A DNA stretch of 64,000 nt from an uncultured Verrucomicrobiae bacterium (GCA_963719495.1 CAVRCI010000001.1:320001-384000); one strand, 5' to 3'. Shown: positions 13,180 through 55,328, counted from the stretch's first letter. The notes: generated by a model not told the origin, from the letters alone. A program made the numbers and translations.

Positions 13180-13872
13180 ATGCCCGACACCCCCGGCCCC
13201 CACATTTCCGCGACCTTCGACGGCGTCATGCAGAACTTGCGAAACAACGTTCTCATGATGTCCAGCCTCACCGACCGCAACGTCCAGAACGCCTCGAAGG
13301 GCCTCTTCCAACGCGACGACGACCTCTGCAACGTCGCCATCGCCGACGACGAGGAAATCGACTCGCTCGAAATCCAAATCGACCGCGACGGAGTCGAAAT
13401 CCTCCTCCGCTACAACCCCCTCGCCACCGACCTCCGCCAGGTCGTCACGGCCATGAAGTCCAGCGTCAACATCGAGCGCATCGCCGATCAGGCCGTCAGC
13501 ATCGCCCGCCGGGGAAAAAAGCTCAACGCCGTCGCCGAACTCCCCGCCGTCCACAAGCTCGAGCCCCTCTTCGCCCTCGCCACCGGCATGTTCCGCGACG
13601 CCACCAAAGCCTTCTCCGACTCGGACGTGGAATTGGCCCGATCCCTCAAACCCCGCGACAAGGAACTGGACGTCCTGAACCACGAATTCGCCGACTACTG
13701 CACCGACCGCATGGCCGCCGAGTCCGCCAACGTCCAAGTCTACCTGAACTACATCTTCATAGCTCGTTCGTTAGAGCGAATCGGCGACCACGCCACCAAC
13801 CTGGGCGAAGACATCGTCTACGCGGTAGCAGCCGAAGAAGTCCGCCACAAACAAAGCAGTCCCATCTTGTAG
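13180..13872 (+). CDS. phoU: Phosphate signalling protein PhoU
   Basis: Two ERIAD/ERIGDHATN repeats. Confidence 0.95.
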   Translation: MPDTPGPHISATFDGVMQNLRNNVLMMSSLTDRNVQNASKGLFQRDDDLCNVAIADDEEIDSLEIQIDRDGVEILLRYNPLATDLRQVVTAMKSSVNIERIADQAVSIARRGKKLNAVAELPAVHKLEPLFALATGMFRDATKAFSDSDVELARSLKPRDKELDVLNHEFADYCTDRMAAESANVQVYLNYIFIARSLERIGDHATNLGEDIVYAVAAEEVRHKQSSPIL

Positions 13873-13993
13873 GGGAGCGCACGCGTCCCCGCGTTCGAGC
13901 CGCGGCGTCCCGCCGCGGCAACCCGGCAAATCGAGCGAAGCGAGAGAGCCGGACCCGCTCAAGGAGCGGCGATTTGCAATCGCCGAACCAACC
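13872..13993. repeat. Composite REP-like element, copy 1
   Basis: GGGGAGCGCACGCGTCCCCGCGT...CGAGCGAAGCGAGAGAGCCG...CTCAAGGAGCGGCGATTTGCAATCGCCG; near-identical to 19028-19146. Confidence 0.85.
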
Positions 13994-19007: not shown

Positions 19008-19027
19008 GGACACTGCAAGGAGCCGCC

Positions 19028-19146
19028 GGGGAGCGCACGCGTCCCCGCGTGCGAGATGCGGCGTCCCGCCGCATCATTCGGCAAGTCGAGCGAAGCGAGA
19101 GAGCCGAAACTCAAGGAGCGGCAATTTGCAATCGCCGGACCAACCA
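19028..19146. repeat. Composite REP-like element, copy 2
   Basis: Matches 13872-13993; lies between convergent genes. Confidence 0.85.
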
Positions 19147-41637: not shown

Positions 41638-44223
41638 ATGCGCCCCGACCGATTCACCCAAAAGACCCAGGAAGCCTTCGCCACCGCGCTTGACCTCGCG
41701 TCCAAGCGCGACCACCAGGAGATCGGCAACGAACACTTCCTCCTCGCCCTCCTCCAGCAACCCGACGGCCTCACCCGCCCCCTCCTCGAAAAGCTCGGCC
41801 TCGCCCCCGCCACCGTCGAATCCGCCCTCGAATCGACCCTCGCCAAACGCTCCACCGTCCACGGCGGCAACACCCCCACCCTCAGCACCGACCTCCGCCG
41901 CACCCTCGACGCAGCCGAGGCCGAGATGGCCAGGCTCAAGGACGAATACCTCTCCGCCGAACACTACCTCCTCGCGCTCCTCGCTTCGAAAGACGAAGCC
42001 GCCCGCCAACTCACCACCGCCGGCATCACCCGCGACAAACTGCTCTCCGCCCTCACCTCGATCCGCGGCAACCAGCGCGTCACCGATCAAGACCCCGAAG
42101 GCAAATACCAAACCCTCGAAAAATACGGCCGCGACCTCACCGACCTCGCCCGCAAGGGCAGGATCGACCCCGTCATCGGCCGCGACGAAGAGATCCGCCG
42201 CACCATGCAGGTCCTCTCCCGCCGCACGAAAAACAATCCCGTCCTCATCGGCGAACCCGGCACCGGGAAGACCGCCATCGTCGAGGGCCTCGCCCGCCGC
42301 ATCGTCGCCGGCGACGTCCCCGAATCCGTCAAAAACAAACGCATCATCGCGATGGACATCGGTGCCATGGTCGCCGGAGCCAAGTTCCGCGGCGAATTCG
42401 AAGACCGCCTCAAAGCCTTCCTCAAAGAAGTCACGTCCTCCGAGGGCCAGATCATTCTCTTCATCGACGAACTCCACACCATCGTCGGAGCGGGAGCCGC
42501 CGAAGGCTCCATGGACGCCTCCAATCTCCTCAAACCACAGCTCGCCCGCGGCGAACTCCGCACCATCGGCGCGACCACCCTGGACGAGTATCGCAAATAC
42601 ATCGAAAAAGACGCCGCCCTCGAACGCCGCTTCCAACCCGTCAAGGTCGACGAACCCAGCGTCGAAGACACCATCGCCATCCTCCGCGGCCTCAAGGAAC
42701 GCTACGAAGTCCACCACGGCGTCCGCATCCAGGACAGCGCCATCGTCGCCGCCGCCGTCCTCTCCGACCGCTACATCAGCGACCGTTTCCTCCCCGACAA
42801 AGCCGTCGACCTCATCGACGAAGCCGCCTCCCGCCTCAAGATCGAACTCGATTCCCTTCCCACCGAGATCGACCAACTCGAGCGTCAGGTCATGCAGCTC
42901 GAAATGGAGCGCCAAGCCCTCAAAAAAGAAAAGGATCCCGCCAGCCGAGATCGCCTGGAAAAGCTCGAACGCGACTTAGCCAACATCCGCGAATCTGCCG
43001 ACCACCTCAAAGCCCAATGGCAGAAGGAGAAAGCGGAAATCGGCAAAACCCAAAAACTAGCCGAGCAAATCGAAGCTCTAAAAACCGAACTCGAACAAGC
43101 TCAACGCCAAGGCAACCTCCAGCGAGCCAGCGAAATCCAATACGGCGACCTCCCTGACCTCCAGCGCCAGCTGGACCATCCCCCAAAAACGGAGGGCGAG
43201 GCTCCCGCCGAGCCCACTTCGACACCCTCCCTCCTCCGCGAAGAAGTCACCGAAGAAGACATCGCCCGCACCGTAGCCACCTGGACCGGCATCCCCGTCA
43301 CCCGCCTCCAGGAAGGCGAACGAGCCAAACTGGTCAAGATGGAAGACCGCTTGGCCGCCCGCGTCGTCGGCCAACTCCAAGCGATCAAAGCCGTCTCCAA
43401 CGCCGTCCGCCGCGCCCGAGCCGGTCTCCAGGACGAAAACCGCCCCATCGGCAGCTTCCTCTTCCTCGGCCCCACCGGAGTCGGTAAAACCGAACTTAGC
43501 AAGGCCTTAGCCGAATTTCTCTTCGACGACGAAAACGCCATCGTCCGCCTGGACATGAGCGAATACATGGAAAAGCACACCGTCGCCCGCCTCATCGGCG
43601 CGCCCCCCGGTTACGTCGGCTACGAAGAAGGCGGCCAGCTCAGCGAAGCCGTCCGGCGAAAGCCCTATTCCGTCGTCCTCTTCGACGAAATCGAAAAAGC
43701 CCACCCCGACGTCTTCAACGTCCTCCTCCAAGTCCTCGACGACGGTCGCATCACCGACGGCCAAGCCCGCACCGTCGACTTCAAGAACACCGTCCTCATC
43801 CTCACGTCCAACATCGGCAGCCAATACATCATGGAGGAGCTGCCCGTCGAAGAACGCAACGCCCGCGTCACCACCGCGCTCAAGGACCACTTCCGCCCCG
43901 AATTCCTCAACCGAATCGACGAAACCATCATCTTCGACCGCTTGGCCGAAGACCAGATCACCCGCATCGTCGACATCCAACTCGACCGCCTCCTCGCGCG
44001 ACTGGCCAAACAGAACCTCACCCTCACGCTCACCGACGAAGCCCGCCAATTCCTGGCCAGCGAAGGCTACGACCCCGCCTACGGAGCGAGACCCCTCAAG
44101 CGAGTCATCCAACGCCAAATCCTCGACCCACTGGCCATCGACCTCCTCGACGGCAAATTCGCCCCCGGCGACACCATTCAAGCCGACCTGGAAACCGACC
44201 ACCTCACCTTCCAGAAACGCTGA
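41638..44223 (+). CDS. clpB: ATP-dependent disaggregase ClpB
   Basis: Two AAA+ modules ([16 protein letters not shown]), M-domain coiled coil, GYVGYEEGG. Confidence 0.97.
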
Positions 44224-44282: not shown

Positions 44283-44322
44283 TTACCGATAAAACGTAAC
44301 GGCCGTTACGTTTTATCGGTAA
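44283..44322. repeat. Island palindrome R1 (perfect, 40 bp)
   Basis: TTACCGATAAAACGTAACGGCCGTTACGTTTTATCGGTAA. Confidence 0.97.
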
Positions 44323-44360
44323 GCTTTTCCCTCTCAGCCTGCCCTGTTAACCTACGCGCC

Positions 44361-47030
44361 ATGCCACCCAAAGCGTCCACCAAACGCGCCGCTTCCGCGA
44401 AGTCCGCGCGCGAATCCCGCCCCGCCAAGAAGCAACGCCGCAAAGAAGGCCCCGCCCTCCCACCCGCCACCGACTGGCGCACCACCGACGCCGACGAACT
44501 CGCCAAACGCCAGCTCCGCGCCCGCGAGGAAAAATTCCGAATCACCCCGCTCGGCGACGCCCACCCCATCTTCACCAACTTCGCCGTCGCCTCCCCCAGC
44601 GGCATGACCTACCACGCCGAGATCCGCGACCTCGCCACCCGGCAATTCTCCTGCACCTGCACCGACTTCCGCACCAACGGCCTCGGCACCTGCAAGCACC
44701 TCGAAGCCATCCTCCTCCACCTCGCCCGCCGCCACCGCGCCGACTTCAAAGCCGCCCAGCGCGTCCCCTCCCCTCACGTCGACATCGTCCCCGATCACGA
44801 ATCCAACCGCCTCCGCGTCGAGCGCAACCTCGAAAAACTCCCACCCAAGCTCCGCGCCCACTTCGATCCCCACGGCCTCCAGCTCCCCGACATCACCCCC
44901 GAAGACCTCGCCACAAAACTCGCCGACTCCCGCTCCGCCGCCCCCCGCCTTTCTCAGGACGTCGCCCCCTGGCTCGCCGCCCGCGCCCGCGAGCGCGACC
45001 GCACCCTCTCCCGCCGCGACTACGAACTCGGCGTCCGCGAAGGCCGCCACCCCGAACACGTCACTCTCAGCCCTCTCTTCCCCTACCAGCGTGAAGGCAT
45101 GCTCCACCTCGCCTTCACCGAGCGCGCCCTCCTCGCCGACGAAATGGGCCTCGGCAAGACCATCCAGGCCATCGCCGCCTGCGCCCTCCTCCACCACCTC
45201 GGCAAAGCCAGCCGCGTCCTCATCGTCACGCCCGCCTCCCTCAAAACCGAATGGGAGGAACAGATCGAAAAATTCACCACCCTCCCGCTGCGCCTCGTTT
45301 TCGGCCCCCGCGCCGCCCGCACCCGCCTCTACGACGACCCCACGCCCCCCATCTTCACCATCGCCAACTACGAACAAATCCTCGCCGACACCCTCGACAT
45401 CAACACCCGCCTGCGCCCCGACATCGTCGTCCTCGACGAAGCCCAGCGCATCAAGAACTGGTCCACCAAAACCGCCCAGGCCGTCAAACGCCTCGACAGC
45501 CGCTACGCCTTCGTCCTCACCGGCACCCCCATCGAAAACCGCATCGACGAACTCCGCTCCCTCGTCGATTTCCTCGACCCCGCCCTCCTCGGCCCCCTCT
45601 TCCGCTTCAACCGCGAATACTACCAACTCGACGAACGCGGCCGCCCCGAAGGCTACAAAAACCTCGACCGCCTCCGCGACCGCGTCCGCCCCCTCCTCCT
45701 GCGCCGCCGCAAAGCCGAGGTCGAGACGGAACTCCCCGACCGCACCGACCGCACCCACTTCATCGCGCTCACCAAGACCATGCGCGACGACTACGCCGCC
45801 TACGAAGCCACCGTCACCAAACTCGCCAACGCCGGCAAACGCCGCCCCCTCACTCCCAAGGAGCAGGACATCCTCATGATCTCGCTCAACTGCATGCGCA
45901 TGATCTGCGACAGCCCCGGCCTCATCAAAGACAACCCCTCCCGCGAGTGCCCCAAGCTCGACGAACTCACCCGCATCCTCGACGAACTCCTCGCCGACCC
46001 CGACGTCAAAGTCATTATCTTCTCCGAATGGGTCGGCATGCTCGAACGCATCCGCGAATACGCAGAAAAGGAAGACCTCGGCTACGCCTGGCACACCGGC
46101 AGCGTCCCCCAGCAGCGCCGCCGCGGCGAGATCCTCGCCTTCCGCTCCGACCCCGACTGCCGCCTCTTCCTCAGCACCGATTCCGGCGGCGTCGGCCTCA
46201 ACCTCCAGAACGCCAGCGTCGTCATCAACTGCGACCTCCCCTGGAACCCCGCCCGCCTCGAGCAACGCATCGCCCGCGCCTGGCGCAAAGGCCAACTCCG
46301 CCCCGTCACCGTCATCAACCTCGTCGCCGAGAAAACCATCGAGCACGGCATGCTCGCCAGTCTCGCCCAGAAGATGGAACTCGCCTCAGGCGTCCTCGAC
46401 GGCATCGGCGACCTCGGCAAAATCCAACTCAAAACCGGACGCCAGGCCCTCCTCAAGCGCCTCGAGCAAGTCATGGCCACCACCCCCTCCGGTTCCGCCC
46501 CGCCGCCATCCGCCGCCCCGGTCATCCCCTCCGACCCCGCCGCCAGCTTCGCCCAGCAGGCCAAATCCCGCCTCGGCGAACGCCTCACCCACTGCGAAGA
46601 AACCTACCTCCCCGGCTCCGCCAACCCCGTCATCCTCGCCGTCCTCCGCGACACCACCGGCAGCGCACCCGAGCAGATCGAGGCCATCTTCCGCGCCGCC
46701 ACCTGGCGCGGCGACCCGCCCACTCTCCAAGTCCTCGACGCCACCGCCTGGGCCGCCCTCGAGAACCTCGCCGCCGCCGGAATGATCACCATCCACACCC
46801 GAGCCACCCGCCCCCTCCTCCCCGTCGACGGTCGGCCCACCCCACCCCCACTCACCGAAGAAGAACTCGCCAGGATCGCCGACCTCCGCGCCACCGCCGA
46901 CAAAAAGCGCCGCGCCGCCGCAGCCCTCATCGCCGCCGATCTCCCCGAAGAAGCCACCCCGCTAACAGCCGCCGCCGAAACCGCCGAAACCCAGGCCCAA
47001 GCCATCGAAACCCGCCAACCCCCCAACTGA
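44361..47030 (+). CDS. SWIM zinc finger plus SNF2-family helicase
   Basis: CTCTDF...CKH; LADEMGLGKT, LDEAQ, LTGTPIEN, GVGLNLQ, WNPARLEQRIARAWR. Confidence 0.92.
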   Translation: MPPKASTKRAASAKSARESRPAKKQRRKEGPALPPATDWRTTDADELAKRQLRAREEKFRITPLGDAHPIFTNFAVASPSGMTYHAEIRDLATRQFSCTCTDFRTNGLGTCKHLEAILLHLARRHRADFKAAQRVPSPHVDIVPDHESNRLRVERNLEKLPPKLRAHFDPHGLQLPDITPEDLATKLADSRSAAPRLSQDVAPWLAARARERDRTLSRRDYELGVREGRHPEHVTLSPLFPYQREGMLHLAFTERALLADEMGLGKTIQAIAACALLHHLGKASRVLIVTPASLKTEWEEQIEKFTTLPLRLVFGPRAARTRLYDDPTPPIFTIANYEQILADTLDINTRLRPDIVVLDEAQRIKNWSTKTAQAVKRLDSRYAFVLTGTPIENRIDELRSLVDFLDPALLGPLFRFNREYYQLDERGRPEGYKNLDRLRDRVRPLLLRRRKAEVETELPDRTDRTHFIALTKTMRDDYAAYEATVTKLANAGKRRPLTPKEQDILMISLNCMRMICDSPGLIKDNPSRECPKLDELTRILDELLADPDVKVIIFSEWVGMLERIREYAEKEDLGYAWHTGSVPQQRRRGEILAFRSDPDCRLFLSTDSGGVGLNLQNASVVINCDLPWNPARLEQRIARAWRKGQLRPVTVINLVAEKTIEHGMLASLAQKMELASGVLDGIGDLGKIQLKTGRQALLKRLEQVMATTPSGSAPPPSAAPVIPSDPAASFAQQAKSRLGERLTHCEETYLPGSANPVILAVLRDTTGSAPEQIEAIFRAATWRGDPPTLQVLDATAWAALENLAAAGMITIHTRATRPLLPVDGRPTPPPLTEEELARIADLRATADKKRRAAAALIAADLPEEATPLTAAAETAETQAQAIETRQPPN

Positions 47031-47077
47031 ACCACCCTCCCCGCACGCCCAAACCCCAGATTCTCGGCGCTCTTCTC

Positions 47078-47113
47078 ACCGATAAAACGTAACGCCCGTC
47101 ACGTTTTATCGGT
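47078..47113. repeat. Island palindrome R2
   Basis: ACCGATAAAACGTAACGCCCGTCACGTTTTATCGGT; contains the stop codon of the paaX-like gene. Confidence 0.95.
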
Positions 47114-47884
47114 AGAGCGTTCGACGAGCTTACCGAGCTTTGACAGCGTTCCAGCCCGCCGATCCCACGCCTCCCGTCCCTTGTAATTCGGTGGGAGCAG
47201 TGCCTCCGGCAGGAGCGGATCCACCGCCATACACGCCATCCAGCGCCCCCGTTCCTCCGCCATCCAACCTGCCAGCGACTCCTGCGAAGCTCGTTTGCCT
47301 GCGGCATCAAGGGTCTTCAAATGATCTCCGTGCCGCCGATAGCACCGCTGGATCTCCGCAAAGTCCCACGCCCTATCCACGATGTCGCAGTTCCGTTCCC
47401 CACCGCAGGCCAACCCCTCGAAAAACAGCAGGGTGCCAGCGTCCACCTTCAACGATTTCAGCCGTTCGCGCACCACCTCCAGACGATCCGGCGTCACCCA
47501 AACACTCTGCTGCAGGCATCCCAGATTCGCTCCGCGCAGCTTCCTCCTCAATCTGTGGCGTAGTGAGCGTTGCGACTCCGGCAGATCAAAGATCACCATT
47601 CGCCAGCTCCCATCCCACGGTCGCGCCCACCATTCCTCCGGGTCCCGCCCTCCCAAAGCCGCCAGCCGGCCCGCCTCAGTGAGGCGGTAAACCCGGTCCG
47701 TCGACCCAGGCTTCGTCGAAGACTCCAGCATCTGCAACTGCTCCAACGCGTGGACTTGCCGCAGAAAGCCACCGCGATAAGCCCATTCCTCGAACGACCC
47801 CGACAAATTACGAAAAGTCGGCTGCATCACCGTCTCAGCCGTCCACAGCAAATGATACATCAACAACTCAGTCCGCGCCTTCAT
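47099..47884 (-). CDS. PaaX-family protein (wHTH, Cas2-like central domain, PaaX C-terminus)
   Basis: From ATG 47884: YRLTEAG, WDGSWRMVIFDLPE..RSLRHRLRRKL...LGCLQQSVWVTP, AWDF, DPLLPEALLP. Confidence 0.88.
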   Translation of the reverse strand: MKARTELLMYHLLWTAETVMQPTFRNLSGSFEEWAYRGGFLRQVHALEQLQMLESSTKPGSTDRVYRLTEAGRLAALGGRDPEEWWARPWDGSWRMVIFDLPESQRSLRHRLRRKLRGANLGCLQQSVWVTPDRLEVVRERLKSLKVDAGTLLFFEGLACGGERNCDIVDRAWDFAEIQRCYRRHGDHLKTLDAAGKRASQESLAGWMAEERGRWMACMAVDPLLPEALLPPNYKGREAWDRRAGTLSKLGKLVERSTDKT

Positions 47885-47897
47885 CCTCACAATCTCT

Positions 47898-47933
47898 ACC
47901 GATAAAACGTAACGGCCGCTATGTTTTATCGGT
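47898..47933. repeat. Island palindrome R3
   Basis: ACCGATAAAACGTAACGGCCGCTATGTTTTATCGGT, 13 bp upstream of the paaX-like start. Confidence 0.95.
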
Positions 47934-48016
47934 GAAGAGGTGCATCGAGTGACGGTAGGATTATGTGAACCCTGGGTTTCCGTAGGTTGGAAGCGGCTCG
48001 CTACCCCCTTTCCGAT

Positions 48017-50830
48017 GTGACCCCCTCCGCTCTCGACAACCACTCGCCACCCGCCGCCAAGATCGCCCGTTACCGATCCCTCTTCCGCGGCCGCACCGAC
48101 GTCTATCCCCGCCGATTCCAAAGCCGCCGCACCGGCAAATCCGGCTACTCGCCCGCCTGCGGCAACCAATGGGTCCGCGGCATTTGCGAAAAACCCCGCA
48201 TCAAGTGCTCCGACTGCCCGCAACAGCACTGGCTCCCCGTCACCGACGATGTCATCCACTGGCACCTCGCCGGTCAGGATTCGCAGCACCAGCCCTTCGT
48301 CATGGGCGTTTATCCCATGCTCCTCGACGAGAGCTGCTTCCTCCTCGCCGCCGATTTCGACGGCGACCAATGGCCCGAGGACACCGCCGCCTTCCGCGCG
48401 ATCTGCGCGGACCGCGGCCTCCACCCCGCCCTCGAACGCTCCCGCTCCGGCAACGGCGCGCACCTTTGGCGGTTCATCAACGAAGCCACCCCCGCCGCTC
48501 TCGCCCGCCGCCTCGGCACCCACCTTCTCACGGAAACCCTCGACCGCCGCCCCGGCCTCGGCCTCGCCTCCTACGACCGCTTCTTCCCGAATCAGGACAA
48601 CCCTCCCCCGCGGCGGTTTCGGCAACCTCATCGCCCTCCCCCTCCAGAAAGCCGCCCGCGAAAACGGTAACACCCTCTTCCTCGATGACCACCTCCGTCC
48701 CCACCCCGACCAGTGGGCGCACCTCGCCAGCCTCCCAAAAATCACTCGCCCTCAAATCGACGACCTCATCGCCAAGGCCGAACGAAAAAACCGCATCCTC
48801 CCCGTGCGCCTCGCGCCCGACGAAGACTTCGCCCTCACCCCCTGGACCGTGCCCCCCTCCCGCCGCACCTCCGAGCCCCCCATCTCCGGGCCCATCCCTC
48901 CCACCCTCGACGTCATTCTCGCCGACCAGATCTACATCCCGAAAGCCGATCTTCCGCCCTCCCTCCGCAACCGCCTCATCCGCCTCGCCGCATTTCAGAA
49001 TCCCGAATTCCACCGCGCCCAGGCCATGCGCCTGCCCACCTACGACAAACCCCGCATCATCGCCTGCGCCGAAGACTATCCCGCGCACATCGCCCTTCCA
49101 CGCGGCTGTCTGGAAGACCTCCAAACCCTCCTCGGGAAACTTCACATTCGCCTCAAGGTGCGGGACGAACGCCAGCCCGGCACCCAGCTCGATGTCCGCT
49201 TCACCGCCACCCTCCGCCCCGAGCAGGAGGCCGCCGCCCTCGCCATGCTCGCCCACGACACCGGCGTCCTCGCCGCCACGACCGCCTTCGGCAAGACCGT
49301 CCTCACCGCCTGGCTCATCGCCCGGCGCGGAGTGAATACCCTCGTCCTTGTTCACCGCCAGCAACTCATGGAGCAATGGTTCGAACGCCTCGCCACCTTC
49401 CTCGACCTGCCCGCAAAATCCATTGGTCGCTTGGGCGGCGGACGCCGCAAACTCACCGGCACCCTCGACATCGCCCTCATCCAGAGCCTCGTTCGCAAAG
49501 GCACCGTGGACGACCGCGTCGCCGACTACGGCCACCTCGTCATCGACGAATGCCACCACCTCCCCGCCCGCAGTTTCGAACTCGTCGCCCGCCGCGCCCA
49601 ATCTCGATACGTCACCGGCCTGTCCGCCACCGTCACCCGCAAGGACGGCCACCACCCCATCATCTTCATGCAGTGCGGACCCATCCGTCACCGCGTTGAA
49701 GCCAGGCAGCAGGCCGACGCCCGCCCCTTCACCCACCACGTCATCGTCCGCCCCACCGCGTTCCGCCCGCTGGACGACCCCTCCGACGACGCCCGCGTCG
49801 AGTTCCAACGCCTCTGCGACGCCCTCGTTCACGACGAAGCCCGCAACGCCCTCATCCACGCCGATGTCACGCAAGCTCTCGCCGAGCGCCGCGTCCCCCT
49901 CGTTCTCACCGAACGGACCGCGCACCTCGACATCCTCGCCGCCAGCCTCGGCACCACTGGCGTTCCCATCATCCAACTCCGCGGCGGCCTCGGCAAAAAG
50001 CAACTCCACCACGCCCTCACCCAGCTTCGCGACCTCCCCGCATCCACCCCCCGCGTCATCCTCGCCACCGGGCGATTCATCGGCGAAGGCTTCGACGACC
50101 CCCGGCTCGAAACCCTTTTTCTCGCCATGCCCGTCTCCTGGCGCGGCACCATCACCCAATACGTCGGACGGCTCCACCGCCTCCACGACGGCAAACGCGA
50201 AGTCCGCGTCCACGACTACGCCGATCTCGACATCCCCATGCTCTCCCGCATGTTCGACCGCCGCTGTGTCGGCTACGAAGCCGCCGGCTACACCATCCTT
50301 CTACCCGCGAGCGCCCCCCCCCCGGCTGGCCGGTCGAGACACTCCTCCCCGTCGAACCCGAGTGGAAACGCGACTACGCCGGCAGTGTCCGCCGCCTCAT
50401 CCGCGACGGCGTCGACCGCCCCCTCGCCAATCTCTTCCTCCACGCCACCCAGCCGCACCCCGGCCCCGATCACGCCCGCAGCGCCAGCGAAGCCTTCCTC
50501 CACCGCCGCCTCGAGACCCTCCCAGCCACCCGCGGCCGCTTCCGCCTCAACACCAGACTCCCCATCCCCTTCGATCAGGAAGGCCGCATGGAAGTCGACT
50601 TCTACTGCGAGGAAGCCCACCTCGCCATCGAACTCGACGGCCCCCAGCACCTCGCCAACGAAGACGCCTGGCGCCGCGACCGCCGCAAAGACGCCCTCCT
50701 CCAGCGGCACGGCATCCTCATCCTCCGCTTCCTCGCCACCGACGTCTGCAAAGACCTCGCCACCATCCTCGACACCATCCAGGCCGCCCTCGCCAACCGC
50801 CACACAACCGCAAAAATTTCCGCGCGATGA
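48017..50830 (+). pseudogene. TOTE-type AEP primase domain + SF2 (ResIII/XPB-like) helicase + DUF559/Vsr-like nuclease, with two frameshifts
   Basis: LFRGRTDVY, YSPAC.N.W, ADFD, ERSRSGNGAHLW, DRFFPNQD | TLPRGGFGNLIALPLQ, ATTAFGKT, DECHH, GEGFDDPRL, QYVGRLHR | PGWP...EVDF...IELDGPQH...RDRRKD..L...G..ILRF; breaks at ~48599 and ~50320. Confidence 0.85.
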
Positions 50831-50862
50831 TCCCCACGCCCCTCGCTCACGACCCGACAGCG

Positions 50863-50900
50863 TTACCGATAAAACGTAACGGCCGTTACATTCTATCGGT
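50863..50900. repeat. Island palindrome R4
   Basis: TTACCGATAAAACGTAACGGCCGTTACATTCTATCGGT. Confidence 0.93.
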
Positions 50901-51040
50901 CACAGTATGGGCAAAATTCGGTGATCGGGTCGAACGACGATTTTGCCACGCGGCCAGTGTCGCCGGAACCAAGAAGGGGGGCCGAACGGTGTCCGTTTTG
51001 TCGGCACATCTTTTTGACGCTGGCTCACACGGATGTGGTG

Positions 51041-51829
51041 TCACCACCGCGTTCCGCCGAACCAATCTTCTTCCTCGCGGATCAGCTTTTCGACCATGCC
51101 TTCGCGGTCGTTGAGGAAACGCCGCGTGAGAATGTAATGATCCGTTTCTTCGTAGGCGACGGGGCGCATCCCGTCCTCGTCGAGCTGGTAGATCTCCGCC
51201 TCGGGATAGGCCAGCAGGATGGGCGAGTGGGTCGCGATCACCATTTGAGATCGATGGAGAACGAGCCGGTGCATGAGCACCAACATCGCCAACTGTCTCT
51301 GGGGCGAGAGCGCGGCTTCGGGTTCGTCGAAGACGTAGAATCCACCTCCGTTGAGCCGATTGTTCAGAAGGCTGAAAAACGCTTCTCCGTGCGACTGTTC
51401 GTGCAGGGATTTACCGCCGTAGGCCGCGGTGAGCGGCATCCCGCCATCCGGTCCTTCATCGAGTTCCTCGAGGTTGGTCGCGAGATTGTAGAAGCTCTCC
51501 GCCCGCAGAAAATAGCCATCCGTCATCCGCGTGCCCCCGGGAGCCAGCCGGATGGCACTGGCGAGCTCCGATTGGCTCTCTCGCGTGGCGAAGCGAAAAT
51601 TCCGGCTCCCGCCCTCGGGGTTGAAGCCGGCGTTGATCGCGATGGCTTCGATGAGAGTTGATTTCCCGCTGCCATTTTCGCCGACCAGAAACGTGACCGG
51701 AGAGTCGAAGCGAAGCCGGTCCAATTCGCGCACCGCCGGGATGGAAAACGGATAATCCCCGCCCTGCCGCCCGCCCCGCCAATTCACCCCGCTGTAGTAG
51801 CTCGCGCGCCCGGGTTTGGTTGTTCGCAT
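51041..51829 (-). CDS. AAA/ABC-type predicted ATPase (COG3910-like)
   Basis: YPFSIPAV, GENGSGKST, FNPEGGS, FLRAES, SHGEAF, DEPEAALSP, ATHSP. Confidence 0.88.
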   Translation of the reverse strand: MRTTKPGRASYYSGVNWRGGRQGGDYPFSIPAVRELDRLRFDSPVTFLVGENGSGKSTLIEAIAINAGFNPEGGSRNFRFATRESQSELASAIRLAPGGTRMTDGYFLRAESFYNLATNLEELDEGPDGGMPLTAAYGGKSLHEQSHGEAFFSLLNNRLNGGGFYVFDEPEAALSPQRQLAMLVLMHRLVLHRSQMVIATHSPILLAYPEAEIYQLDEDGMRPVAYEETDHYILTRRFLNDREGMVEKLIREEEDWFGGTRW

Positions 51830-51877
51830 TCCGGGAAAATAGGCAGAGCCCGCTTTCCAGACAATGATTGTGCGCCT

Positions 51878-52858
51878 ATGACCACCGACCAAGCCCTCGA
51901 CTCACTCCGCGACCAGATCCGCCGCCAACGTCTTTCACTTTCCACCGAACGCACTTACCTCCAGTGGCTGCGCCGCTACGTCGATTATCTCAAACACCAT
52001 CCCCAGCTCTCCGCGGACCCCGGTCCCAAAAAAATCACGGATTTCCTGACGTCGCTGGCGGTTTCCCGCACCTCCGCGTCCGGCCAGAACCAAGCGCTCG
52101 CCGCCGTTCTGTTCTTCTATAAGCACGTCCTCGAGCAGGATCCCGGTCCGATCAAAGCTCTGCGCGTCCGACGTCCCGAGGGGCACCGCCACGCTCCCAG
52201 CCAGACGGACACGTTGCGGCTGCTCGATTCGATTCAAGACACTCCGCAATACCCAATTCGCCTCGTCGTCCACCTGCTCTACGGTTGCGGTCTTCGGCTG
52301 AATGAAGCCCTCGACTTTCGAATGAAAGACGTCGATCTCGACGGGAACCGCTTGATTATCCGCGAAGCCAAGGGAAACAAAACGCGCATCGTCGCGCTGC
52401 CGGGAGGTCTGCGGACCGCTCTGGCGACCCAGATGCAATCCGTGCGAAGAATCTGGGAGCGGGATCAGTGGAACGCCATTCCGGTCCCGCTCCCCGACCG
52501 TCTCCTCGAAAAGTCGCGACGTTGGGAGGCGACCCTGGCCTGGTATTGGCTCTTCCCCGCCGCCAAGCCCTGCCTTGACCCGCGTTCCGGCCGCCGCGTG
52601 CGCTGGCGATGTCATCAGGCCACCATTCAGCGCGCCGTCGGGAGGGCCAGCGACCAACTTGGCTTTTCGCTCCCGATCACTCCGCATCATTTGCGCCACG
52701 CCTACGCGACCCACGCGCTCGAACGCGGGGCCAACATCCGGGCGCTCCAGCTCGCGATGGGACACAAATCGCTGGAGACGACGCAAGGTTACCTGACCTC
52801 CGATGCGCTGAACGTTCCGAGTCCGCTGGATGGACTCGATCTTGATTGTGAGCTGTGA
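51878..52858 (+). CDS. intI: Integron-type tyrosine recombinase
   Basis: SLSTERTY..W, SASGQNQALAA.LFFYK, LYGCGLRL.E, KG.K.R, IntI-like patch WYWLFPA...DPRSG, HHLRHAYATH, MGHK..TT.GY. Confidence 0.85.
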   Translation: MTTDQALDSLRDQIRRQRLSLSTERTYLQWLRRYVDYLKHHPQLSADPGPKKITDFLTSLAVSRTSASGQNQALAAVLFFYKHVLEQDPGPIKALRVRRPEGHRHAPSQTDTLRLLDSIQDTPQYPIRLVVHLLYGCGLRLNEALDFRMKDVDLDGNRLIIREAKGNKTRIVALPGGLRTALATQMQSVRRIWERDQWNAIPVPLPDRLLEKSRRWEATLAWYWLFPAAKPCLDPRSGRRVRWRCHQATIQRAVGRASDQLGFSLPITPHHLRHAYATHALERGANIRALQLAMGHKSLETTQGYLTSDALNVPSPLDGLDLDCEL

Positions 52859-53036: not shown

Positions 53037-55328
53037 TCACTCCACGCCCCACCATTTCGGCAGAAGCACTTTCGTCCTCGTCTCGCCGAAACGTTGGTCG
53101 ATCAGCAACGCGGCCCCGCGATCCGTCTCCGATCGAATCAATCGACCCACGGCCTGCAGCACGCGCTGCATTCCGGGGAACCGATAGGCGAAATCGAAGC
53201 CCGCGCCGTGCGTGCGTTGAAACTCGTCGACCAACACGTCGCGTTCGACCGACAGCCCCGGCAGACCAATCCCGATCACCGTCACACCCACCACGCGGTC
53301 GCCGGGCAGGTCGATGCCTTCCGAGAAAATCCCGCCCAGCACCGCAAGTCCAACGGCATTCCCCGACTGCGCGAAGTTTCGCAGGAATTCATCGCGGGCT
53401 TCCTCGTCCATCCCGGACGTCTGCTCGACCAGGTGGATTCCCGCGGATTCCAATTCGTCGGACAACGCACTCAGGTAACGGAACGACGGACAGAAAACGA
53501 GATGGTTGCCGGGCCATTCGGCGACGTGTGCCGCGAGTGCCCGGCCGACCTCCGGCAGCGAGGCCATCCGCCCCTTGTAACTGACGTCGATGGCGAGCGC
53601 GGTCACCCGCATTTGCTCCGATCCGAAGGGGGACTCGATCTCGAGCGAGCGATCCGTCGCCACCCCACCGAGCAATTGCTGAAAATAGTCGAGCGGCGTG
53701 AGCGTCGCCGAGAAGAACACCGCCGCGCGAAGACCTTCCAGCGTCGCGGCCAGTCGCTTCGAAGCGTCCGCGCAAAAGAGGGTCACGCGTTGATCGAGCG
53801 GTTCGACGATCACCCGGCACGAGTCGTCGTAACCGTCCGCCGCCCGAAGAAATGCGAGCAATTCGAACCATGGCTCCAGCCAGGACGAAAGCTCCGCGCC
53901 CTCCGGCTGCTCCGTGAGGAAGCGCTCGATGGCACCCGAGCTCTCCCGTAATTCGATGATTAATTCCTCCGGCCATTCCTTCCAAACTTTGGCACCGTCG
54001 TGATAGGCGCGGGCGGGCAACTCCGAAGGCGTCTCGGTCGCCGTCAGAGTTTTCAGGGCTCTTGCCACCGCGGCAAACGCCCCGCGGGCGCGCCCAGCCC
54101 CCGTCCCCTCCATCCTGGAGGCTCCGAGGAGTGCGAACTCCGCCGCCGTCAGCGAAGCGGAATACATCGCCCGGCTTCGGTCCACGAGGTTGTGCGCTTC
54201 GTCGACGAGAACGACGTGGCGACCGTCCGCGTTCTCGAAGTGCCGTTGCAGCCGCGCCGTCGGATCGAAGACGTGGTTGAAATCCCCGATCACCACGTCG
54301 GTCCAGACCGAGGCGTCCAACGACAACTCGAACGGGCACACCGTGTGGGCCCGCGCCACCTCCTCGATGGCATCGCGATCAATCCGCTCGCGCTCGAGCA
54401 AATCCCGCACCGCCGGCCGGCAGCGGTCGAAATACCCGAGCGCGAACGGGCAGGTCCGCGGATCGCAGCCGGTCGTACCGGCGTTGAAACAAATTTTCCG
54501 CTTCGCCGTGAGACTCACGCTTCTCAGCCGCGCCCCGGCTCCGCGCAGATGCTCCAGCGCCTCGTCGGCCGCGATTCGTCCCGGCGTCTTGGCGGTCACG
54601 TAGAAGATCTGGCCGTCCACGGTCGGCAACGACTTCACCGCCGGAAACAACGTCGCCAGCGTTTTGCCCGTCCCGGTGGGTGCTTCGGCAAAAAGCCGCC
54701 CGCCGTCGCGAATCGTGCGGAAGACCTCGACCGAAAATTCGCGCTGTCCCGGGCGAAATCCGCCGAGTGGGAACTCCATTGCCGCTATGCTGGCGTCCCG
54801 CTTCTCGACCCAGCGCGCTTTCGGAATCAACCATTCGAACCAAAACCGCAACGTCGCTTCGAGGAATGCGGCCAGCGTTTCCGCTTTCTCGATCTCCGGA
54901 AAATTCGTTTCCGCGTCGGTGTCGAGATCGAGGTAGGTCAGCCGCACCTCGACCTCGGTCCACGCGCGCTGGGCGGCCAGCAATGCGGCGTAGATTCGGA
55001 CCTGCGCGCGGTGCAGGGGAGCGGCCTCGCCGGACCAACCCGTCTCGACGGTCTTGATCTCCTCGACCACGGGGGGGGCGGTGTTTGCCGTGAGGCCGTC
55101 GACCCGGCCGACGAGTTTCAACTTCACACCATCACGCTCGAACTCCGCTTCGAGCGGAATTTCCGCCTCGTAGCCGTCGCCGCGGGCTCCCTGGATTTTG
55201 CGGTGACCGCGGGTGCCTTCCAACGCGCGGGTGCTCGAGAGAATCCTACCGCTGCCGCCCCGGTCACCCGTCCGATAGGCGAATTCGACAAGCTCGCGGA
55301 CGGAGACGCGTTGTTCGAATTGACCCAC
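53037..55328 (-). CDS. DinG/XPD-like Fe-S helicase with an N-terminal PD-(D/E)XK nuclease domain
   Basis: GRVDG...EEIKT; APTGTGKT; KICF..C...CPF; VDEAHN; FSATL; EGID; QAVGRLIR. Confidence 0.88.
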   Translation of the reverse strand: MGQFEQRVSVRELVEFAYRTGDRGGSGRILSSTRALEGTRGHRKIQGARGDGYEAEIPLEAEFERDGVKLKLVGRVDGLTANTAPPVVEEIKTVETGWSGEAAPLHRAQVRIYAALLAAQRAWTEVEVRLTYLDLDTDAETNFPEIEKAETLAAFLEATLRFWFEWLIPKARWVEKRDASIAAMEFPLGGFRPGQREFSVEVFRTIRDGGRLFAEAPTGTGKTLATLFPAVKSLPTVDGQIFYVTAKTPGRIAADEALEHLRGAGARLRSVSLTAKRKICFNAGTTGCDPRTCPFALGYFDRCRPAVRDLLERERIDRDAIEEVARAHTVCPFELSLDASVWTDVVIGDFNHVFDPTARLQRHFENADGRHVVLVDEAHNLVDRSRAMYSASLTAAEFALLGASRMEGTGAGRARGAFAAVARALKTLTATETPSELPARAYHDGAKVWKEWPEELIIELRESSGAIERFLTEQPEGAELSSWLEPWFELLAFLRAADGYDDSCRVIVEPLDQRVTLFCADASKRLAATLEGLRAAVFFSATLTPLDYFQQLLGGVATDRSLEIESPFGSEQMRVTALAIDVSYKGRMASLPEVGRALAAHVAEWPGNHLVFCPSFRYLSALSDELESAGIHLVEQTSGMDEEARDEFLRNFAQSGNAVGLAVLGGIFSEGIDLPGDRVVGVTVIGIGLPGLSVERDVLVDEFQRTHGAGFDFAYRFPGMQRVLQAVGRLIRSETDRGAALLIDQRFGETRTKVLLPKWWGVE

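Follow-up and report, generated by a model that had tools for sequence, protein, structure and literature searches.

The four palindromes R1 to R4, which lie between positions 44283 and 50900 of the 64,000-nucleotide stretch of an uncultured Verrucomicrobiae genome analyzed here (the window), are copies of a 36-bp palindrome family dispersed over the whole genome, and the PaaX/Cas2-like gene between R2 and R3 is predicted to be, and probably is, the partner of that family. In its arrangement this pairing would be closer to repetitive extragenic palindromic (REP) repeats with their partner genes than to an integron. The genome of the window (G000) comprises 4.54 Mb in 16 contigs with 63% G+C; positions outside the window are given as contig:position. 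The features that carry the argument are the following:

44283-44322 (core 44285-44320), no strand: R1, a perfect palindrome of 40 bp counting its TT/AA ends
47078-47113, no strand: R2, palindrome between convergent genes, at the PaaX-like gene's 3' end, kept in the congener G005
47099-47884, minus strand: PaaX/Cas2-like gene (Pfam PaaX_M 3.8e-20, PaaX_C 8e-5)
47898-47933, no strand: R3, palindrome between the divergent PaaX-like and primase-helicase genes, kept in G005
50865-50900, no strand: R4, palindrome between convergent gene ends

The 17-mer ACCGATAAAACGTAACG matched the plus strand exactly (0 mismatches) at 44285, 47078, 47898 and 50865, and the mirror arms of R1, R2, R3 and R4 on the minus strand matched it with 0, 1, 2 and 2 mismatches, respectively. 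These eight half-site matches make up the four palindromes, whereas the rest of the window contained none and 100 shuffled sequences gave 0 matches, confirming the view of an initial annotation of this DNA that the palindromes are real and occur nowhere else in the window. The same annotation had correctly described the left 17 nt as invariant in all four copies and the arm changes as confined to the right arms. Its further statement that four of the five arm substitutions stay paired as G:T on the bottom strand is accurate as a count, but with three mutated copies it carries no statistical weight, and the energies of the DNA hairpins agree with it only in part: the bottom strand folded more stably than the top in R2 (-20.0 versus -18.1 kcal/mol) and R4 (-10.8 versus -7.1 kcal/mol), and the order was reversed in R3. 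R1 forms a DNA hairpin of 18 bp (-17.8 kcal/mol, z -5.6) and scanned as terminator-like with a T-rich tail. A search of Rfam with 43.5-53.5 kb found no match at E up to 1, and a sigma-70 scan returned 0 promoter-like sites.

With respect to the genes, R1 is located between tandem genes (62 bp 3' of the clpB stop and 41 bp 5' of the start of an SNF2 helicase gene), and R3 lies in a divergent region, with the ATG of the PaaX-like gene 13 nt away on one side and the start of the primase-helicase gene 54 nt away on the other. Since the ATPase gene that follows R4 (51041-51892) is on the minus strand, R2 and R4 are both between convergent gene ends. The placement of the palindromes at module borders by the initial annotation thus stands in that they lie between genes, but it overlooks the direction of the ATPase gene and the fact that R2 and R4 hold gene 3' ends: the last four codons and the stop codon of the PaaX-like gene are within R2 and those of the primase-helicase gene within R4, and the two proteins share the C-terminus ...TDKT*.

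When the whole genome was searched, 75 half-site matches were found at up to two mismatches, compared to 0 for the backwards control. They form 38 paired copies of the 36-bp palindrome (family 1) on 13 of the 16 contigs, plus 11 unpaired or degenerate half-sites. The copies are nearly identical across the 36 bp and adjoin housekeeping genes, such as hisS, lptF and bioB; in five of the 38 the stem is lengthened by at least five complementary bases. These numbers support the alternative that the initial annotation had offered, a dedicated dispersed repeat family. Twenty-one of the 38 copies are inside a non-coding element of ~590 bp, of which there are 10 full copies (88-93% identity), three internally deleted copies and six divergent copies. 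Because of its terminal inverted repeats (22 bp) and target duplications (8-9 bp), we classified this element as a MITE (a miniature transposable element with inverted repeats). A second, variant palindrome lies within it, at a distance of ~165 bp from the first. A search of G000 for an autonomous parent found none, all pairs of the MITE's terminal inverted repeats being 377-650 bp apart. The possibility that the MITE is a decayed palindrome-gene-palindrome unit was rejected, as tblastn of both PaaX-like proteins of the genome (see below) against the MITE copies gave a best E of 0.25 and the element had no open reading frame (ORF) matching PaaX. A microsatellite of variable length, (TCGT)n/(TTCG)n, is found beside the palindrome in MITE copies (e.g., C4:230580-230620). 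For the 17 family 1 copies outside the MITE, R1 to R4 among them, mutual similarity is limited to 45-57 bp. Family 1 copies also stand beside the PolB, dnaE-like and RlaP|RtcB genes, and at the gene of a WYL-WCX regulator (C4:166681-167751) the palindrome is at or just within the annotated 5' end.

The association of palindrome and PaaX-like gene was found a second time in the same genome. A paralogue of the PaaX-like gene (C4:68530-69291, 49% identity) is flanked by a different 36-bp palindrome, designated family 2, which has 25 paired copies in G000. Each of the two genes has two palindromes of its own family, ~400 bp from the gene center. In nine of the 25 family 2 copies the stem is lengthened by 8-14 complementary bases, and in both families the extended stems often have a C-run on the 5' side and a G-run on the 3' side. 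To extend the comparison, homologues were surveyed by a profile scan with one genome per species, which recovered at least 574 related loci, mainly in Verrucomicrobiota, of which 80 were kept. A flanking palindrome was present upstream of the gene in 58 of the 80 loci, downstream in 54 and on both sides in 45, and 39 of these 45 two-sided pairs have at least 12 identical nt in common; in control windows displaced by 1.5 kb a palindrome was detected in only 2 of 135. The palindrome sequence varies from locus to locus, as well as between paralogues within one genome, and in most loci the upstream palindrome keeps a short, fixed spacing to the start codon. Apart from artefacts of overlapping frames, no neighboring gene was conserved in more than seven of the 80 loci. 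In six other Verrucomicrobiota genomes the palindrome of the resident gene was present in 2, 2, 8, 8, 8 and 23 copies. As such, the palindrome-gene-palindrome unit is conserved and every gene lineage has its own matching palindrome. The initial annotation had noted the paaX-like gene, which is indeed present, but listed it as a mere module; here it is the predicted partner of the repeat family, and this pairing sharpens the notion of a dispersed repeat.

Based on profile searches and a structure model (pLDDT 84.5), the PaaX-like protein is a full-length PaaX homologue, with winged-helix, Cas2-like middle and PaaX_C domains. A sequence profile search matched it to PDB 8A39 (E 3e-12), as did Foldseek (8a39, E 3e-8), which also matched Cas2 chains to the middle domain with probabilities of at least 0.9 and weak E-values. 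The gene most likely starts with the ATG at 47884, which R3 precedes by 13 nt, and the consensus of the family begins with MKxKTEL. Against TIGR02277 the protein scored 46 bits relative to a cut-off of 264.6, far below the equivalog level. The motif FDLP is invariant in the subfamily, and E. coli PaaX has LSE at the aligned position. No paa genes adjoin the PaaX-like gene, whose neighbors are the SNF2 and primase-helicase genes. Among homologues of the PaaX-like protein found by a protein search, many are on contigs of ~0.9-2 kb, which would fit assembly breaks at flanking repeats, and one is called Cas2 by its source.

The joint occurrence of gene and palindrome was also apparent among 40 relatives of G000, where the family 1 palindrome was found only in G005 (same genus, 79% complete), which is also the only one of the 40 with an intact close orthologue of the PaaX-like gene (93% identity). 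Two copies in G005 surround that orthologue 820 bp apart, the spacing of R2 and R3. Over 3678 bp, identity between the two genomes is 95.4% in the block R3-paaX-R2-SNF2-R1 (44284-47946), and in the adjacent clpB it is 91.2%. G005 has four copies of the palindrome in total, none of them at rtcB, and the fourth site is without a counterpart in G000. Matches to the PaaX-like protein were obtained twice in G000, in G005, in G001 as two frameshifted pieces and weakly in two other genomes. The frameshifted gene of G001 is nearest to the family 2 partner, is flanked by half-decayed palindromes and is accompanied by only three relic palindromes elsewhere in that genome.

Comparison with the congeners demonstrated that solo copies were gained in G000 after its split from them, for family 1 with extra intergenic DNA and for family 2 in frame within genes. 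In the congeners, family 1 is missing from the syntenic intergenic regions at rtcB, SBP|lptF and polB, and where these regions could be aligned they are ~60-115 bp shorter than those of G000. At hisS no comparison was possible with G005, as synteny is broken there. The family 2 sequence is stop-free in all frames, and all three reading frames are used among the copies inside genes. In-frame insertions of family 2 in the genes for a CDF transporter (~54-63 nt) and an HrpB-like helicase (51 nt) of G000 are absent in five of five congeners. A PMT-like membrane protein has an insert in both G000 and G001, each with its own variant, the differences being mirrored in both arms. In a GT4 glycosyltransferase (C13:469703-470890) a segment of 11 codons is of equal length in six species (orthologues L145 and L151-L155), and G000 has a family 2 palindrome there, G001 another palindrome variant, G003 a half-palindromic and G005 a family-1-like sequence, which points to either an insertion hot spot or the re-writing of an old insert.

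Taken together, we favor the following scheme. By analogy with PaaX, a dimer of the PaaX-like protein is predicted to bind the palindrome by means of the winged helices. According to the description of the E. coli PaaX operator in PMC9493321, it consists of two inverted hexamers, TGATTC(N27)GAATCA, that span 39 bp, and PaaX represses its own gene; both points fit a dimer on a 36-38-bp palindrome that abuts a start codon. Since the upstream copy abuts its start codon, the PaaX-like protein likely represses its own gene as well. The copies are further predicted to depend on it for their maintenance or spread, a part that the REP-associated tyrosine transposases (RAYT) are thought to play for REP/REPIN repeats, and for the chemistry of such a process the Cas2-like domain would be a candidate. 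R1 and R4 would be solo copies that landed near the master gene, and the SNF2, primase-helicase, ATPase and integrase genes would be neighbors rather than captured cassettes. Beyond this genome, we raise tentatively, as a possible but doubtful extension, that there is a second, HUH-independent class of REPtron-like systems in Verrucomicrobiota and bacteria of the candidate phyla radiation (CPR), in which PaaX/Cas2-like partners each recognize and copy or re-write their own 36-bp palindrome. Copying or re-writing by these proteins would explain the entry of palindromes into genes in frame, and also the species-own variants at orthologous sites with changes mirrored in both arms.

A number of observations weigh against this scheme. 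A homologue of PaaX is by default a repressor, not a recombinase. When the Cas2-like domain alone was compared with PDB sequences, Rv0674 alone was aligned and there was no alignment to Cas2; the Asp of FDLP, a putative counterpart of the catalytic acidic residue of Cas2, gained no support from this domain search. At the threshold used, 13 of the 80 homologous loci have no flanking palindrome. The extra DNA of G000 relative to the congeners exceeds the palindrome itself (~115 bp at lptF and ~60 bp or more at polB), no target duplication was recognized around the solo copies, and the rtcB intergenic DNA of the congeners is too diverged for a clean empty-site alignment or for insert edges. No usable joints were found in two DNA runs, metagenome contigs of low depth in which 46.9-48.9 kb has gaps; the one loose end in them, at 44319, where palindrome passes into MITE sequence, is an assembly cross-over. 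Finally, most family 1 solo copies are 13-144 bp upstream of a gene start (based on crude gene calls), and about ten of their neighbors are of nucleic-acid repair or defence type, namely dnaE-like, PolB, two SNF2, the archaeo-eukaryotic primase (AEP)-helicase, RlaP, RtcB, the WYL regulator and the ATPase. Such an upstream placement, rich in repair and defence genes, is the look that a regulon would have.

The last point leads to the most serious rival explanation, in which the PaaX-like protein acts as a common repressor whose operators are the palindromes, controlling a regulon for stress or for DNA/RNA repair and defence to which the SNF2 and primase-helicase genes belong, the copies in the MITE and inside genes being accidental. 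Consistent with this explanation are the homology to a repressor with a long palindromic operator, the fixed short distance of the upstream copy from the start codon in most loci, which suits autoregulation, and the solo copies upstream of the dnaE-like, PolB, SNF2, AEP-helicase, RtcB and WYL-regulator genes. However, the sites are not conserved before the orthologous genes in G005, in spite of the 93% identical protein and four copies of the same palindrome in that 79% complete genome, and operators would not be expected between convergent gene ends (R2, R4 and a copy at C4:333731) or in frame within conserved genes. The near-identity of the copies over 36 bp is also unlike degenerate operators, a duplex operator would need no extended stem such as those of nine of the 25 family 2 copies, and the copy number ranges from 2 to 38 across genomes. 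We therefore regard the plain regulon as unlikely, although it keeps real weight because most solo copies precede a gene and repair or defence-type genes are frequent among the neighbors. It is improbable, in turn, that the palindromes are structural hairpins selected by the host as bidirectional terminators, insulators or mRNA stabilizers, with the PaaX-like gene merely insulated by two of them. The terminator-like R1 with its T-rich tail, the strong hairpin folding, the extended GC-rich stems and the many copies that follow a gene end would all suit such a role, but it leaves unexplained why each PaaX-like lineage has its own palindrome on both sides, why the family is absent from congeners without the gene, and why there are copies in divergent promoter regions and inside genes. 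Even less probable is that the palindromes are ordinary REPs moved by an HUH/Y1 (RAYT-type) transposase of the genome with the PaaX-like gene as a bystander. Twelve Y1_Tnp matches are indeed present in G000, yet none comes within 11.7 kb of a copy of either family, while both PaaX-like genes are bracketed by such copies, as are their homologues in 45 of 80 distant loci.

The initial annotation had preferred a cassette-like system for capturing conflict and defence genes at hairpin sites other than attC, and we consider it barely credible that the integron-type integrase uses R1 to R4 as recombination sites to take up cassettes of defence genes. An integron-type integrase gene is located 1 kb from R4, and the homology between G000 and G005 stops 13 bp past R3. 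Synteny between the two genomes is, however, broken at many places that are free of palindromes, and because of this the breakpoint on the R3 side is uninformative on module borders. In addition, the 38 copies are genome-wide, mostly far from any integrase, with housekeeping genes beside them and 21 of them inside a MITE; the genes between the copies run in both directions and do not form a co-oriented cassette array. In G005 the ATPase-integrase pair (78% DNA identity) lies ~8.7 kb from R1-SNF2-R2-paaX-R3 and has no adjoining palindrome. The initial annotation was itself correct that the palindromes are not attC sites, as neither of the two box patterns it named is found at their ends and R1 is a perfect palindrome. 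A separate array with an integrase of its own is present on another contig: at C2:27011-175116 there are 195 copies of a ~60-75-bp repeat over 148 kb, 187 of them co-oriented, with a median spacing of 643 bp, and the array ends beside an integrase gene (C2:176420-177349) whose product is 34% identical to the window integrase. This array is probably a very large chromosomal integron. No link between the window integrase and the palindromes was found, and integron capture is largely refuted, the scatter of copies over the genome being an outcome that the initial annotation had itself named as refuting it.

The genes surrounding the palindromes and the PaaX-like gene are as follows:

41638-44223, plus strand: clpB, the gene adjoining R1
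44361-47030, plus strand: SNF2-family helicase (Pfam SNF2-rel_dom and Helicase_C), co-inherited with the PaaX-like unit in the congener G005
47987-50879, plus strand: TOTE-type AEP primase and SF2 helicase fusion, in two frames (47987-48670 and 48249-50879)
51041-51892, minus strand: ATPase (Pfam AAA_15/AAA_21)
51878-52858, plus strand: integron-type tyrosine recombinase (TIGR02249)
53037-55328, minus strand: DinG-like helicase, the gene 3' of the integrase

In comparisons of the SNF2 gene with the PADLOC/NCBIfam models for DpdE, ZorD and DrmD, the helicase core alone was covered, with scores far under the cut-offs. The primase-helicase gene is absent at the corresponding place in G005. Its two frames overlap at 48249-48670, with positions 2-177 of the AEP-TOTE profile in one frame and positions 174-229 plus ResIII/DEAD in the other, and this reading in two frames would reflect a frameshift, a sequencing error or recoding near 48.6 kb. 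The ATPase gave weak PADLOC matches to mad3, AriA and PtuA; it is a neighbor, and its membership in the repeat system is not supported by any link found. The integrase scored 249 bits against TIGR02249 (cut-off 265) and covered positions 2-315 of 315 of the profile. Pfam detected no SWIM or nuclease domain in the proteins of the region, contrary to the modules described in the initial annotation. Two further repeats were encountered. One is a multi-copy element of ~700 bp that contains a DUF6788-type ORF; it abuts R3 in G005 (L038:9428-10122) and is present three times in G000 (C2:754711, C13:506934 and C14:29671). An unrelated dispersed repeat of 80-200 bp is present in the window at 13872-13980 and 19026-19132 and, as judged from a comparison of a 6-kb stretch of contig C4 with the genome, at ~100 places genome-wide.

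Among known systems, the integron with its attC sites and IntI is comparable in having hairpin-forming sites between genes and an integron-type integrase nearby, but R1 to R4 are without attC boxes, unpaired bases, a co-oriented array and attI, and their copies are genome-wide. The Rickettsia palindromic elements are short palindromic repeats that lie in frame in conserved protein genes, to which they add a short peptide; the inserts described here are shorter (~50-63 bp) and have a bracketed partner gene. With PaaX of E. coli and Pseudomonas, a phenylacetyl-CoA-responsive repressor (PDB 8A39 and 3L09), the protein shares a three-domain fold, and the long inverted-repeat operator with its 39-bp span, as PMC9493321 describes it, is a second likeness. 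It differs from PaaX in having 25-38 near-identical sites, some of which are inside genes, in the absence of adjacent paa genes and in FDLP in place of LSE.

The closest parallel is with the REPtrons formed by REP/REPIN repeats and RAYT (TnpA-REP) proteins, as outlined in PMC2817692, PMC3116915 and PMC8266576. In both cases a single-copy gene sits between two copies of a short palindrome that is dispersed over the genome, there is one repeat family per gene lineage, several orthogonal pairs can occur per genome and the copy number varies among genomes. The partner here is of the PaaX-type winged-helix/Cas2-like kind, not an HUH/Y1 transposase, the repeats are perfect 36-bp palindromes without a GTAG or CGTC end tag, some copies lie within genes in frame, and a MITE carries half of family 1. 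REP-type repeats are among the commonest non-coding repeats of bacteria, and, as set out in PMC3733652, HUH/Y1 transposases are their only described partners, with whole REP classes left without a known partner. Among the papers listed by full-text searches, we found no published link of PaaX-like genes to dispersed palindromes. What is new here is the full-length Verrucomicrobiota branch, the presence of two orthogonal pairs in a single genome, the carriage by a MITE, the in-frame insertions and the turnover of variants at orthologous sites. If the proposed pairing is true, the lifestyle of a repeat with its guardian would have evolved more than once, nature would offer hundreds of proteins paired with 36-bp sites and orthogonal in their specificity, and a role would be provided for a large group of genes whose present annotation is phenylacetate regulator or Cas2. 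It also guards against misreading such loci as systems for capturing defence genes. By this analogy, the data fit a repeat-plus-partner system that would be built like REP/RAYT with an unrelated protein.

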